Shown: positions 48,499 through 52,118 of the stretch, piece by piece
Layout: each line of letters opens with the position of its first letter
How positions within the stretch are numbered: the first letter of the stretch is position 1
Notes under the pieces: model-generated
What the model was told of the DNA's origin: nothing
Databases searched by the model: none
Seen by the model: the letters and a program-made list of their open reading frames with translations, nothing else
Assembly: GCA_030619905.1 (NCBI GenBank)
Contig: JAUXAO010000003.1
Coordinates: 1-52,118, forward strand
Length of the DNA: 52,118 nucleotides
Origin: a bacterium
GTDB lineage: Bacteria > Patescibacteriota > Minisyncoccia > Minisyncoccales > CG1-02-41-26
Direction of reading: 5' to 3'
Position numbers and translations under genes: made by a program

Positions 48499-49179
48499 AT
48501 GAAGAAAATATTACTGTCATTATTCCTAATCATATTATTGAGCCTCTTTCTGTTGCCTATAGATGATATTGAGGCAAGGAGTGGTTGTTGCTCCTGGCAC
48601 GGCGGAGTCTGTACTTATAAATGTCCTGATGGTGTTAATGTTGGATATATGTGTTGTGACGGGACCTCCCTCTCAGCAAAGTGTGCTCCCTATTATTCAA
48701 GTTGTCCTGCTAAAACAACACCGAAGTGCCCTAGTTATTCTACCTACAATTCTTCATCTGATTCTTGTGAGTGTAACTATGGATATATAGTTTCGGGAGA
48801 CAAATGTATTGACGCTGACACTTTCTGTCAGGACAAACATAGTCTTCATTCAAGTTATAATAGTTCATCGAAAAGCTGCGAGTGTGATTATGGATACAAG
48901 CTAATTGATAGTAAATGTGTGAAGCCAGAACCAATTAAAGAGCAACCCTTAGTTGAAGAACAATCAGATGAGGAGATAGTCGTAGAAGAAGAGGAATCAG
49001 ACGATGAACAGCTTAGTGAGCAACCACCGGCACAGCAAGATGGTTTATCAGCACCAGAAAAATTTACTGCTGATATTTCTAAAGAAGATGGTGGCGGAGG
49101 GTTTATTTGGTGGATAATAGGAATAGGAGCTGCGGCTTATATTTTCTATACACTTGGAAAAAGAAAAAGAGAAAAGTAG
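48499..49179 (+). CDS. Cysteine-rich surface protein with two EGF-like repeats and a C-terminal TM anchor
   Basis: Signal peptide, ARSGCCSWHGGVC, 16 Cys, repeat YNSSSxSCECxYGY...KC twice, acidic linker, TM, basic tail. Confidence 0.7.
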   Translation: MKKILLSLFLIILLSLFLLPIDDIEARSGCCSWHGGVCTYKCPDGVNVGYMCCDGTSLSAKCAPYYSSCPAKTTPKCPSYSTYNSSSDSCECNYGYIVSGDKCIDADTFCQDKHSLHSSYNSSSKSCECDYGYKLIDSKCVKPEPIKEQPLVEEQSDEEIVVEEEESDDEQLSEQPPAQQDGLSAPEKFTADISKEDGGGGFIWWIIGIGAAAYIFYTLGKRKREK

Positions 49180-49215
49180 TTAATAATAATCTATGAAAGA
49201 AAAAATTAAAAAATA

Positions 49216-49279
49216 GGGGATTGACCCCCGTTTTTTATTGGTCTAAAATAAAAAGACAGCCTAAATTAGGCTGATTTTT
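49216..49279 (+). terminator. Two short hairpins, terminator candidates
   Basis: GGGG-attga-CCCC then a T-run; CAGCCT-aaatt-AGGCTG then ATTTTT. Confidence 0.45.
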
Positions 49280-49340
49280 AATAAATTTTCAGTGATTTAC
49301 TTTTGCCAAAACTAATGAGTAAGAAGATATAAGTAAAAAT

Positions 49341-49604
49341 ATGAGCTATTGGATCAAAGAAACAATTCATCAAGCCGCTCGTGAACGAAAAGTTCTACGA
49401 ATTGTTTATATTGAAAAAGATGGTAGTAACGAAGGGTGGCGATATGTCGAGCCCTACAGTTTTAGTAATGATGAAGGTGAAGATGCTTTATTCGCTTGGG
49501 ATAGAGGAAAGAGTGGAATTAGAAGATTTGTATTAAGTCGTATTCAACAAATAGAGGTTACTGATGAATCGTATTATTCTCGATATTCAATAGAAATTTT
49601 CTAA
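49341..49604 (+). CDS. Stand-alone WYL domain protein
   Basis: LRIVY...WRYVEPYSF...LFAWD...IRRFVLSRIQQIEVT; no HTH. Confidence 0.82.
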   Translation: MSYWIKETIHQAARERKVLRIVYIEKDGSNEGWRYVEPYSFSNDEGEDALFAWDRGKSGIRRFVLSRIQQIEVTDESYYSRYSIEIF

Positions 49605-49606
49605 AT

Positions 49607-50482
49607 ATGTCAAATCAAAAATTTAAATTTAAATTCAGAGGGAAAGTAATGGTGATTATTGATTGGACAAATGTGTACAATTGGTTTCCGGATCTTGGTT
49701 GGAAAATCCCCCCGCCGAAACTCTTTGATTATTTACGTTCATATCCAGAAATTCAAGATATAAACTTCTATTTTGGAATTGAACCAAACAAACGAAAATC
49801 GGTTGATTTTCATAGAGAGATTGAATTAATCGGCTACTCTCTTAAAAATAAAGAAGTAAAATGGGTTCCGGCAGCGCTAGAGACAACTTCGCATTTCAAA
49901 GAAGTTATTCAAAATCTATTTGAAGTTTTAGAAAATGTTAAAAATACCAATTCAAATATTTCAAATCAACTTTACGAACTTTCTAAAAAATTAAATGGAT
50001 TACTTAAGATATCTTTTGGTAATAAAAAAATAATCTCTGATTTTACTGATAAAAAGCACTTGAATGAGATTTATAATTTAATTGAAGAGTTGGATCAAGA
50101 GTTAAAAAAACTCAATATTGATATCGGTGAACTCCAAATAAAATTAAAAGAACCAGTAAAACGAAGAAAATGTGATTTTGACGTGGAAATTACAAAGGAT
50201 GCGCTGAATAACCTAGATAAATTTGAAACCATCTTAATCTTTAGCGGTGATGGAGATTTTGCAACATTAGCTGAGGATTTAATAATTAATAAAAATAAAA
50301 AGGTTATTGTTGTTTTTGCGCAAGGCCATATTGGGAAAGAATACGAATCTCTAAGGCTAAAATTAGAAGAATTGAGAAAATTACGTCATCAAGGGTTAGG
50401 GGGATTATTTATATGCAATGTTAAAAAATTACAAGAGTTTATTGGAAATAAATATCCCCAGAGGTTAATCTCTGGGGCGTGA
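49607..50482 (+). CDS. NYN (LabA/DUF88, PIN-like) nuclease with a coiled-coil insertion
   Basis: IIDWTNV, KCDFDVEI, IFSGDGDF acidic motifs; about 95-aa heptad-rich insert. Confidence 0.85.
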   Translation: MSNQKFKFKFRGKVMVIIDWTNVYNWFPDLGWKIPPPKLFDYLRSYPEIQDINFYFGIEPNKRKSVDFHREIELIGYSLKNKEVKWVPAALETTSHFKEVIQNLFEVLENVKNTNSNISNQLYELSKKLNGLLKISFGNKKIISDFTDKKHLNEIYNLIEELDQELKKLNIDIGELQIKLKEPVKRRKCDFDVEITKDALNNLDKFETILIFSGDGDFATLAEDLIINKNKKVIVVFAQGHIGKEYESLRLKLEELRKLRHQGLGGLFICNVKKLQEFIGNKYPQRLISGA

Positions 50483-50484
50483 TT
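50446..50484 (-). ncRNA. Candidate short hairpin RNA antisense to the NYN 3' end
   Basis: Lies just downstream of the minus-strand promoter at 50490-50517; CCCCAGAG-6 nt-CTCTGGGG hairpin (50456-50477) followed by an A/U-rich run on the minus strand. Ends are inferred. Confidence 0.45.
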
Positions 50485-50489
50485 ATTCA

Positions 50490-50517
50490 ATAATATCACC
50501 CCATAAATTTTTGTCAA
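50490..50517 (-). promoter_or_regulatory. Strong sigma70-type promoter convergent with NYN
   Basis: Minus strand TTGACA, 16 bp, TATTAT with TGn extension. Confidence 0.65.
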
Positions 50518-50524
50518 GAGGGAT

Positions 50525-50533
50525 TTATCCACA
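50525..50533 (+). promoter_or_regulatory. DnaA box
   Basis: Perfect TTATCCACA. Confidence 0.7.
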
Positions 50534-50585
50534 TTAGATTATGTCTCAAAACCTTAACGAAAATTGTGGAAACCCTCTTTAAGGT

Positions 50586-50828
50586 TTAAAACAGCCCCGA
50601 CAGAGAGGCATTATGAGATACCTCTAAAAGCTCCCGAATTTGTTCCTGAAAACTAGGTTCTAGACCGAGTAAGGAAGGTATACGGTTAACTTCTACAGTA
50701 AATTTCTTATCACGACTGATAAAATGAACATAATGAGACCCACTTCCATGTTCAGACAAATAAAAATCGTGGTCTTTGAGAAAATCCACGACATCCTTAA
50801 ATGTCCAATTTCTTAATCTTCTAGCCAT
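50586..50828 (-). CDS. hicA: HicA-like mRNA interferase toxin
   Basis: WTFKDVVDFLKDHDF...GSGSHY (GSH motif); atypical C-terminus. Confidence 0.65.
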   Translation of the reverse strand: MARRLRNWTFKDVVDFLKDHDFYLSEHGSGSHYVHFISRDKKFTVEVNRIPSLLGLEPSFQEQIRELLEVSHNASLSGLF

Positions 50829-50830
50829 AT

Positions 50831-51175
50831 TTAAGTATAAACTAACTCTTGTTTTACTGGGAAAGGTGCTAGAGAAGACGTCCTTTTTTGAAGAAGTTTC
50901 TCAACCTCTCTCAGAAGTTTAGCTGTATAATATTTGTCCCAATACTTTTTAAGAGCAGGGCGATTAAGCAGTTTGTTGCTCAAATTTTCTTTTCTTACCA
51001 CTTCAAGATGACCAAAAGCAGCCTCTTCTAGGTTTTCCAAAAGTTCTTTAGGGCTTTCTCCTTCTTCAATGATATTTAATGTTAAACAAACCCCAACAAA
51101 TCGTTTTTCGTCAGGATAAACAAGAAATTCAAATACTCCTCTTTTTTTTGTATTCCAGATTTTTACGTTCTTCAT
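50831..51175 (-). CDS. hicB: HicB-like antitoxin
   Basis: FLVYPDEKRFVGVCLTLNIIEEGESPKELLENLEEA; start moved from 51217 to 51175 because the promoter lies at 51189-51217. Confidence 0.6.
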   Translation of the reverse strand: MKNVKIWNTKKRGVFEFLVYPDEKRFVGVCLTLNIIEEGESPKELLENLEEAAFGHLEVVRKENLSNKLLNRPALKKYWDKYYTAKLLREVEKLLQKRTSSLAPFPVKQELVYT

Positions 51176-51188
51176 ACTTCTATAATGT

Positions 51189-51217
51189 ATTATAACTCTT
51201 AAGTGATTTAAATACAA
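51189..51217 (-). promoter_or_regulatory. sigma70-type promoter of hicBA
   Basis: Minus strand TTGTAT, 17 bp, TATAAT. Confidence 0.65.
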
Positions 51218-51218
51218 C

Positions 51219-51227
51219 TGTGGATAA
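51219..51227 (-). promoter_or_regulatory. DnaA box
   Basis: TGTGGATAA (perfect TTATCCACA on the minus strand), 1 nt upstream of the hicB -35. Confidence 0.7.
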
Positions 51228-51301
51228 CTTTTAAAAATTAAGTAAGCAAAAGCATTACCTCTATCTGGTTTTGTTTAGCTTATAAGCAAAAGCAAAATTG
51301 C

Positions 51302-51901
51302 TCAGCAAGTTTGTTCAGACAAAAACTGTTCAAGTTGAAGTGTGATGGTTTCAATCTTCTCTGAAATTTCATTGATTTTTTCAGCCACTTCGTCTAAGGC
51401 GGGCTGTGTTTCTTCCGAATCCTTTCCTTGTTCAGTTATTTGAGCTAAAGTTGCTTTTAATTCTTTTAATGATAATTGTTGAACCTGAATTGAAATTATT
51501 GTAACTTTCTTGGAAATTTCATTGACTTGCTGGGCTATTTCTTCCAATGTGAGTTTCCTTTTTTCTGGAAGTGTGGTTGTTTCTTGTCCTAGGACATCTT
51601 TGGTTTTTTCAAGTGATAGGGCTTCCTCGGTTAATCCTTCAGTTATGTCCTGAGTTTCTGCCTCAAAAGACATCTGGTCTGATACAGAAGCAAGCTGAGA
51701 TTCTTTAAGCCCTTCTTCTCCGAGATCTATCCTTAATGTAAAATTAGAAAAGTAATCTTTAATTTTATTTATTGCTCTTATTCTTTCATCTTGATGTAAG
51801 TAAAAATATCCTCCAACCATTACTAAAACAAGAAAGATGGCTAAGAGAATTAAATTTCTTCTATTTATTTTTCTGTTATTAGTAAAAAGATTTCTATACA
51901 T
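51302..51901 (-). CDS. Membrane-anchored coiled-coil hypothetical protein
   Basis: N-terminal TM; two similar heptad segments. Confidence 0.7.
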   Translation of the reverse strand: MYRNLFTNNRKINRRNLILLAIFLVLVMVGGYFYLHQDERIRAINKIKDYFSNFTLRIDLGEEGLKESQLASVSDQMSFEAETQDITEGLTEEALSLEKTKDVLGQETTTLPEKRKLTLEEIAQQVNEISKKVTIISIQVQQLSLKELKATLAQITEQGKDSEETQPALDEVAEKINEISEKIETITLQLEQFLSEQTC

Positions 51902-52040
51902 AAAAATTAAATTTATATTTTATGACCTTTGTCTTAATATTTAATTATAAATGAGCTAGAGCATATGGGCATTTTTTATGTCCGCCCTGTATATATTTAC
52001 TAATCTTATGTCCAAAGCCTTTTTTAATCAAGTCCTACCA

Positions 52041-52049
52041 TGTGGATAA
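52041..52049 (-). promoter_or_regulatory. DnaA box
   Basis: TGTGGATAA, perfect. Confidence 0.7.
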
Positions 52050-52056
52050 CTTACTC

Positions 52057-52085
52057 TTGAGAAGTATATTAATTAGATATATATT
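52057..52085 (+). promoter_or_regulatory. sigma70-type promoter pointing out of the window
   Basis: TTGAGA, 17 bp, TATATT. Confidence 0.5.
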
Positions 52086-52118
52086 GAAGATGTGTTTGTG
52101 GGACGTCAGTCCTATTCG

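Follow-up and report, generated by a model that had tools for sequence, protein, structure and literature searches.

The 3' end of a predicted ribonuclease gene in a patescibacterial genome raises the question of what a promoter-like sequence and a hairpin, both facing the gene from the opposite strand, are doing there. The gene lies in a 52,118-nucleotide (nt) stretch of DNA (GenBank assembly GCA_030619905.1, contig JAUXAO010000003.1, positions 1 to 52,118; hereafter, the window) from a 617-kb genome of the Patescibacteria, or Candidate Phyla Radiation (CPR). It encodes a LabA-like NYN nuclease and follows, on the plus strand and after a gap of 2 nt, the gene of a stand-alone WYL protein. A sequence-only reading of this locus had described the WYL-NYN pair, a near-consensus minus-strand promoter just past the NYN stop, and a perfect 8-bp hairpin within the last NYN codons, and had proposed a three-part system in which a short RNA represses the nuclease and WYL sensing triggers it. 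All of the sequence features were present where it had placed them (Table 1). Comparison of 81 NYN loci strongly supported the structural side of the proposal, namely a real, short, separately promoted RNA gene that is tied to NYN. With respect to function, we lean towards an RNA that acts like an RNA antitoxin and restrains NYN, as part of a toxin-antitoxin or defense-like module.

The promoter of the putative small RNA (sRNA) gene matched the consensus at 11 of 12 positions with an extended -10 element and was the best of the 10 promoter-like sites in the 2.5-kb region scanned. Transcription is predicted to start at the A in position 50483, seven bases past the -10 hexamer; a start had been correctly anticipated here, at about 50484, and only its position is shifted. 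The predicted product of ~38 nt agrees with the expected RNA of about 40 nt and is antisense to the NYN open reading frame (ORF) over 37 of its 38 nt. The element encodes the last nine NYN codons together with the TGA stop (50480-50482), which falls inside the conserved leader. On the minus strand, the hairpin folded at -16 kcal/mol (z = -5.6), and none of 200 shuffled sequences was as stable. It also scored as terminator-like on the plus strand (tail CGTGATTATT), the minus-strand version being clearly better, and the statement that the hairpin cannot be the NYN terminator was therefore too strong: since both strands score, it may act bidirectionally and also end the NYN transcript. In the window, the promoter spacer and the leader could also pair as another hairpin (GGGGTGAT/ATCACGCCCC), which was seen by eye and was not noticed at other loci, where no systematic search for it was made. 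By chance, 9.2 ± 3.1 promoter-like sites were expected in the scanned AT-rich region, compared to the 10 observed, whereas terminator-like sites were enriched (8 compared to 1.5 ± 1.4). Because a lone promoter-like match is not unusual in AT-rich DNA, the case against chance rests on conservation.

To the window's own locus we added 80 NYN loci from contigs representing one genome per species. The canonical RNA unit was found convergent to NYN in 66 of the 81 loci, and units with variant leaders (GUCACGC, AUCUAGC, AUCUCGC, and AUCAUGC) in four more, giving 70. Among the 11 loci without a unit, L030 and L035 stop at the contig edge exactly at the NYN end, and L069 keeps 90 nt downstream. The organism labels of the carriers include Parcubacteria, Microgenomates, Peregrinibacteria, Doudnabacteria, WWE3, and Berkelbacteria. 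Within the 66 canonical loci, the -35 hexamer was strongly conserved (T64, T66, G63, A61, C60, A37), as were positions 1, 2, and 6 of the -10 hexamer (T66, A59, T65); TGn was present in 58 loci, and the spacer measured 16-18 nt in 62. The leader A stood 6-7 nt past the -10 hexamer in 60 loci, as a canonical +1. The leader AUC(A/G)CG was invariant in these loci and near-invariant when the variants are counted, whereas the spacer and discriminator sequences were not conserved. Relative to the NYN stop, the element was located anywhere between -94 and +189 nt. The TGA within the leader complement is the NYN stop in ten loci, the window's among them, and in others the ORF reads through the element. 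An apparent C-terminal NYN peptide motif ('YPQRLISGA' or 'IPxDFSxGRD') was rejected as such, being the RNA element read in frame; most homologs end before it.

The hairpins of the 66 canonical units comprised 54 distinct sequences, most of them capped by a GNRA or UUCG tetraloop. When 26 sequences were aligned without gaps, pairing was intact in 98.3% of the stem cells, compared to 74.8% after shuffling, and double-sided changes occurred in seven of the nine stem pairs. The covariation score was 0.721 compared to 0.222 in shuffles that ignore phylogeny, and it collapsed when the pairing partners were slid by one to three columns. Given this slide control, the 54 distinct hairpins, and the asymmetry of G.U pairs, chance covariation appears implausible. 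The 55 G.U pairs would be A.C mismatches if read on the other strand, and the minus-strand fold was the stabler one in 55 loci compared to 5. Because of these G.U pairs and stabler folds, the alignments indicate that the selected molecule is the minus-strand RNA made from the conserved promoter, not the 3' untranslated region of NYN. In one subclass (L006, L018, L019, L024-L029, L036, and L007-L009), an AU-rich first hairpin lacks a U-run, and termination falls to a second, GC-rich hairpin; because the first hairpin is non-terminating there, the leader and hairpin 1 are more than a terminator. The sequence-only reading had suggested looking for a conserved promoter and hairpin with covarying stems at the 3' ends of NYN homologs, and this is what the 70 loci provided.

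The RNA was also tightly linked to NYN. A covariance model (R1) built from 26 relatives matched the window RNA with 53.9 bits (E = 2.8e-9), which was its only strong match in the 617-kb genome; a strict sequence pattern likewise returned one copy, and the element was absent from all other convergent gene pairs of the genome. Run on a phylum-wide sample of 401 genomes, the strict pattern matched 25 times; three matches had the hairpin and U-run, all three adjoined NYN, and the model found two of them. Carriers make up ~0.5-0.75% of the sample. Neither in its own genome nor in the 401 sampled genomes was the unit found away from NYN. Rfam 15 had no relevant match at E <= 1 in positions 48900-52118 and none at E <= 0.05 in seven related loci. 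Carriage by phages was considered and rejected: viral contigs scanned at the protein level yielded a single weak partial match, and none of 34 DNA-pattern matches had the hairpin, the U-run, or NYN. Separately, two distinct sequences on the IMG/VR contigs L119, L120, L126, and L130 open with ATCACGCCC after a promoter-like site, with no NYN nearby; at least one of them ends in ...ATAGTGAT plus a T-run, and 5' AUCAC could pair with 3' GUGAU. These sequences may represent a related orphan RNA or chance.

The protein partner has the features of a functional enzyme. The NYN profile score was 52.4 bits compared to the Pfam cut-off of 24.2, and the AlphaFold2 model (predicted local distance difference test, pLDDT, 84.6) has a LabA/Marf1-like core, with the LabA-like NYN structure 2qip as the best PDB match (TMt 0.71) and the Marf1 NYN domain also matching (TMt 0.68). 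The acidic residues D19, D190, D192, D215, and D217 were invariant in 85 NYN homologs; because of these active-site residues and the LabA/Marf1-like fold, NYN is expected to be an active nuclease. A helical hairpin of ~90 residues is inserted in the protein at about residues 95-181. More than 200 homologs were found at E <= 0.001, and all source names were Patescibacteria lineages. In one of them (L031:1046-1048, from a metagenome-assembled genome labeled Berkelbacteria), an in-frame TGA occupies the invariant first Gly of the NYN SGDGD motif and is followed by DGDY, which suggests either that TGA is read as glycine (code 25-like) or that the bin is mislabeled.

The host genome encodes a second NYN paralog of ~170 aa (L002, contig C7, ~112.4-113.0 kb), with pnp directly 3' on the same strand; its homologs are present in 19 of 21 relatives. 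The R1 covariance model found no RNA of the NYN-linked type anywhere in the relatives that carry this paralog, which is probably a housekeeping RNase without a partner RNA of this type. A same-family relative (L154; G404:C27, ~15.9-16.9 kb) holds an intact short NYN next to a decayed one of the long type, which is split among three frames; no partner RNA was recognizable at the decayed copy in G404, an uninformative case.

The WYL protein scored 50.9 bits against a Pfam cut-off of 21.8, and its AlphaFold2 model (pLDDT 94) superimposed with template modeling (TM) scores of ~0.8 on the WYL domains of BrxR, PafBC, CapW, and DriD. This is the fold of known WYL domains that sense single-stranded DNA (ssDNA) or single-stranded RNA: DriD and CapW were matched as ssDNA-bound structures, and the WYL1 structure 6oaw was also among the fold matches. 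PafBC is ssDNA-responsive as well. The protein consists of one helix and the barrel, with no helix-turn-helix (HTH) or other DNA-binding domain, and its alignment with BrxR covers the WYL part alone (76 of 289 residues). Because it lacks an HTH, it cannot by itself be a classical transcription factor. Its 75 homologs are 85-94 aa long and 49-77% identical, and WYL lies directly 5' of NYN in the long-NYN loci. WYL and the helical insert were both present in 25 loci and both missing from 49 (Fisher p = 9e-15), in essentially one clade; three of the six discordant loci are truncated or frameshifted. Short NYN homologs from other lineages (170-230 aa) have neither WYL nor the insert and keep the RNA. 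For this reason we regard NYN and the RNA as the core of the system and WYL as a clade-specific add-on regulator that would dock on the insert. Of the three-part system proposed at the outset, the NYN-RNA pair therefore stood as general, whereas the WYL part is confined to one clade.

The sRNA promoter in the window is accompanied by a perfect DnaA box. With at most one mismatch allowed, 22 of the 66 canonical loci had a DnaA box at the equivalent place, between 39 and 52 nt from the start of the RNA, a 12.5-fold enrichment over the remainder of those loci (56-fold for perfect boxes). Most of the 22 loci are of the WYL-linked class, and both orientations of the box occur. The sRNA promoter is thus likely to be DnaA-responsive. 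A replication origin or primer RNA was considered and rejected: the cumulative GC skew rises monotonically along contig C4 and has its minimum near 114 kb of C7, the contig that also carries dnaA (at 141 kb). As a separate observation, three of the 11 perfect DnaA boxes of the genome lie within 1.5 kb of each other (50525-50533, 51219-51227, and 52041-52049), each adjoining a promoter-like site, and in this lineage such boxes may serve generally as regulatory sites close to promoters.

The genomic context of the pair is that of an accessory cassette. WYL-linked NYN with the RNA was present in one of 21 related genomes, the window's own, and absent from the 20 relatives. The relatives keep the clpB-side anchor and genes matching C4:52964-54035, with unrelated genes in between; L149 and L150, for example, hold unrelated genes of similar total length. 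Because the anchors are conserved while the genes between them differ, the cassette is placed in a variable island at ~47.9-52.9 kb. Flanking genes over the 80 loci showed no conserved synteny (101 singletons among 138). The gene directly 5' of WYL-NYN encoded a restriction-modification methyltransferase in eight of 17 loci examined, from three different classes, and an HNH nuclease, DUF2130 (twice), or a RecB-like nuclease in others. In L003, L005, L009, L010-L013, and L019, WYL-NYN is appended to methyltransferase genes, often with overlapping stop and start codons, and the two may be co-transcribed. At L007:1926-2011, a tRNA gene lies ~700 nt 5' of WYL-NYN, a possible integration hotspot. 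PADLOC and NCBIfam returned nothing specific, and assignment to a known defense system was therefore rejected.

Based on these results, we propose a cassette of up to three parts: WYL, the LabA-like NYN ribonuclease, and a convergent RNA micro-gene. The RNA would be made abundantly with NYN as its dedicated partner and would hold the nuclease in check as a bound flap-on-hairpin pseudo-substrate, which is plausible for a PIN-like nuclease; possibly it also base-pairs with the NYN mRNA, whose 3' end is complementary. Recognition by the protein is favored over pure antisense action because an invariant single-stranded leader is carried on a hairpin free of sequence constraint. NYN would become active once replenishment of the short-lived RNA stops. 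In the window's clade, NYN would have gained the helical insert and a co-translated stand-alone WYL, which probably docks on the insert and modulates NYN upon encountering single-stranded nucleic acid, and the DnaA box near the -35 element may link production of the RNA to the status of DnaA. The pair would then behave like a mobile toxin-antitoxin or abortive-defense module. A patchy distribution, a variable island, frequent restriction-modification neighbors, and a sensor-fold WYL without a DNA-binding domain all fit such a reading.

Several points weigh against it. The co-inheritance of the RNA with NYN and the correlation of WYL with the insert are phylogenetically non-independent; GNRA or UUCG loops followed by a U-run are traits of any good terminator; and the invariant leader could serve a purpose other than NYN binding. 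The DnaA box occurs in just about one third of the loci, the restriction-modification neighbors are guilt by association, and a weak generic NYN match is all that PADLOC gives. To our knowledge, NYN domains do not count among the established toxins of toxin-antitoxin systems.

Among the alternatives, the one that survives best is a pure cis-antisense RNA of the type I kind, which would pair with the NYN mRNA 3' end or act through convergent-transcription interference, altering how stable that mRNA is or how its 3' end is processed, and never contact the protein. The geometry is suitable, with the RNA convergent to NYN and overlapping or lying just past its stop in every unit-bearing locus, and the terminator-like score of the plus strand implies that the NYN mRNA probably ends inside the complementary stretch. 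However, antisense pairing requires no particular sequence, yet across very divergent lineages the leader is near-invariant and the stems drift; tetraloops of the GNRA and UUCG types are ill suited to kissing interactions; and selection for minus-strand fold stability works against opening of the hairpin. We therefore consider this explanation unlikely.

Somewhat less credible still is an RNA that acts as a cofactor or guide, activating or targeting NYN as a ribonucleoprotein nuclease instead of inhibiting it. A strict one-to-one pairing with a nuclease, an invariant single-stranded 5' leader, and a strong promoter would all be expected of such an RNA, and WYL proteins accompany RNA-guided effectors such as Cas13d. 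An invariant leader of 6-7 nt, however, cannot be adapted to different targets. The host genome shows no avoidance of the leader complement, GCGTGAT (10 copies observed compared to 9-13 expected under Markov models, under which an apparent depletion against base composition, with 35 expected, vanishes), and none of the 10 copies is near a gene start. The operon mRNA offers no better-than-chance site: a second RNA site was rejected at -21.4 kcal/mol compared to -21.1 ± 2.8 kcal/mol for shuffled sequences. A trans-acting, seed-pairing sRNA was rejected as well, with none of the 10 copies near a gene start or in an rRNA-like stretch.

The two remaining explanations are very improbable. In the first, there is no functional RNA, and the element is a bidirectional terminator with a promoter-like insulator that protects NYN and its neighbors against read-through; the hairpin and U-run do have every property of a terminator, on both strands in the window, and promoter-like hexamers are common in AT-rich DNA at the chance level given above, but the -35, TGn, and -10 elements are kept with fixed spacing in the 66 loci, the leader is invariant with its A at +1 in 60 of them, one subclass combines a non-terminating hairpin 1 with a separate terminator, and the other convergent gene pairs of the genome do without the element. 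In the second, NYN is a housekeeping RNA-processing enzyme outside conflict systems with a structured 3' regulatory element, as the wide distribution of LabA-like NYN proteins and the clearly housekeeping setting of the pnp-linked paralog in the own genome and 19 of 21 relatives might suggest; the absence of WYL-linked NYN and RNA from all 20 relatives, their rarity among the 401 sampled genomes, the lack of conserved synteny, and the adjoining restriction-modification genes speak against it.

An RNA that restrains NYN would resemble the antitoxins of type III systems (ToxIN, CptIN, TenpIN, and AbiQ-antiQ) in that an endoribonuclease is paired one-to-one with a dedicated structured RNA of ~36 nt per unit, supplied in excess from a strong promoter (here predicted), in mobile, patchy cassettes within defense neighborhoods. 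In contrast to type III, in which the toxin is ToxN/Kid-like and the RNA is a tandem-repeat array located 5' of the toxin gene on the same strand, set apart from it by a terminator and processed by the toxin, the nuclease here is NYN/PIN-like, with no ToxN or AbiQ match in Pfam or PADLOC, and the RNA gene comprises one unit that lies 3' of the nuclease gene and has a promoter of its own on the other strand. No pseudoknot is predicted here, and WYL and the DnaA box are extra. With convergent type I systems (txpA/RatA and bsrG/SR4 of B. subtilis, and Fst/RNA II of pAD1 par), the cassette shares the tail-to-tail arrangement and, as predicted, an sRNA with a strong promoter over the 3' end of the toxin mRNA and a bidirectional terminator common to both transcripts; this convergent geometry, with a 37-nt antisense overlap in the window, holds in 70 loci. 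Type I toxins, however, are small membrane or hydrophobic peptides (< ~60 aa), unlike the soluble 291-aa nuclease, the overlap here is just ~38 nt, and the invariant leader is not needed for antisense action. The cassette would thus work most like type III with the geometry of convergent type I, and it lacks defining features of both: it has neither a ToxN-family toxin nor upstream tandem repeats (type III), and its putative toxin is not a small peptide (type I).

Small terminator-ended RNAs associated with a nearby protein gene have been described before. The DUF3800-I to -XI, drum, and skipping-rope motifs are terminator-ended structured orphan RNAs located by one protein family, on either strand (Weinberg et al., 2017, PMC5737381). 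Their partner proteins are different, with NYN unmentioned in PMC5737381, and the RNA described here is far simpler. The WYL protein has the same beta-barrel as the regulators BrxR, CapW, DriD, and PafBC and the Cas13d-associated WYL1, which bind single-stranded nucleic acid as a signal. Those regulators are transcription factors of winged HTH-WYL-WCX architecture and WYL1 is a larger accessory protein, whereas here a lone 87-aa WYL is translationally coupled to a nuclease with a co-occurring helical insert. Full-text literature searches retrieved no description of an NYN-small RNA pair, and a 2014 survey of WYL proteins cites NYN in its reference list only (PMC4012209). The cassette probably represents an undescribed nuclease with its own RNA controller. 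The window contributes a single-hairpin RNA, which is the shortest form, as well as a WYL partner that co-occurs with the NYN insert, a promoter-adjacent DnaA box, and a restriction-modification neighborhood. A fuller version of the proposal, which we put forward tentatively and regard as rather doubtful, is a previously undescribed class of RNA-controlled nucleases of Patescibacteria, neither type I nor type III, with a hairpin antidote of ~35-70 nt bearing a 5'-AUCACG flap that would occupy a LabA-like NYN RNase as a pseudo-substrate and, in one clade, with an insert for docking of a stand-alone WYL sensor of single-stranded nucleic acid and a DnaA-box promoter; NYN would be freed upon loss of DnaA or of transcription during phage attack or replication arrest.

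The surroundings of the cassette were also inspected. The operon at 50586-51217 on the minus strand, labeled hicBA in the sequence-only reading, gave a HicA_toxin match of 13.2 bits against a cut-off of 27 (E = 0.099); beyond this sub-threshold match, no support for the label was found. The second protein of this operon had no HicB profile match in Pfam, and neither protein had a PDB sequence match. Among the NYN loci compared, these neighbor genes occur in the window alone. It had been allowed earlier that the hairpin might act only as the terminator of this operon, which was refuted because the neighbors are specific to the window while the element follows NYN at the other loci as well. On the other side of the cassette, the region 49216-49273, 5' of WYL, contains two terminator-like hairpins with the promoter-like site TTGACC-17-TAAAAT between them, and a transcript starting near 49256 would open with a hairpin and U-run. 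The region 49221-49273 may serve WYL-NYN as a leader or attenuator, or the upstream gene as a second, tandem terminator. This promoter-hairpin arrangement is not conserved in relatives, in which WYL often abuts or overlaps the preceding gene.

Table 1. Positions of the genes and predicted signals of the cassette in the window
Feature	Position	Strand	Basis or details
Candidate WYL-NYN operon promoter, TTGACC-17-TAAAAT	49221-49249	+	10/12 promoter match
Hairpin and U-run just past the candidate operon promoter	49257-49273	+	Scores terminator-like on both strands
Stand-alone WYL protein, 87 aa, first gene of the operon	49341-49604	+	Pfam WYL PF13280, E 1.6e-13
LabA-like NYN (PIN-like) nuclease, 291 aa	49607-50482	+	Pfam NYN PF01936, E 1.1e-13
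Predicted sRNA, ~38 nt	50483-50446	-	pppAUCACG (50483-50478), hairpin, and AUAUUUAUUU (50455-50446)
Predicted sRNA hairpin, 8 bp with 6-nt loop, doubling as intrinsic terminator	50477-50456	-	CCCCAGAG/CTCTGGGG
Predicted sRNA promoter, extended -10, TGn-TATTAT, spacer 16 nt	50498-50490 (TATTAT 50495-50490)	-	Promoter scan
Predicted sRNA promoter, -35, TTGACA	50517-50512	-	Promoter scan
Perfect DnaA box, TTATCCACA	50525-50533	+	8 nt upstream of the sRNA -35

The biology of the CPR is almost wholly inferred from genomes. If the RNA restrains NYN, the cassette would extend the RNA-antitoxin systems by a toxin fold and a minimal RNA architecture that are both new, and it would be the first conflict or defense module described as characteristic of the CPR. 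It would give a concrete and testable role to some of the bacterial LabA-like NYN proteins, a large family of unknown function, and its parts (87 aa, 291 aa, and 38 nt) are small enough for direct reconstitution. The cassette further suggests a second mode of action for WYL domains, through protein contact with an effector, beyond transcription, and the DnaA box by the RNA promoter points to a possible link between replication status and release of the nuclease.

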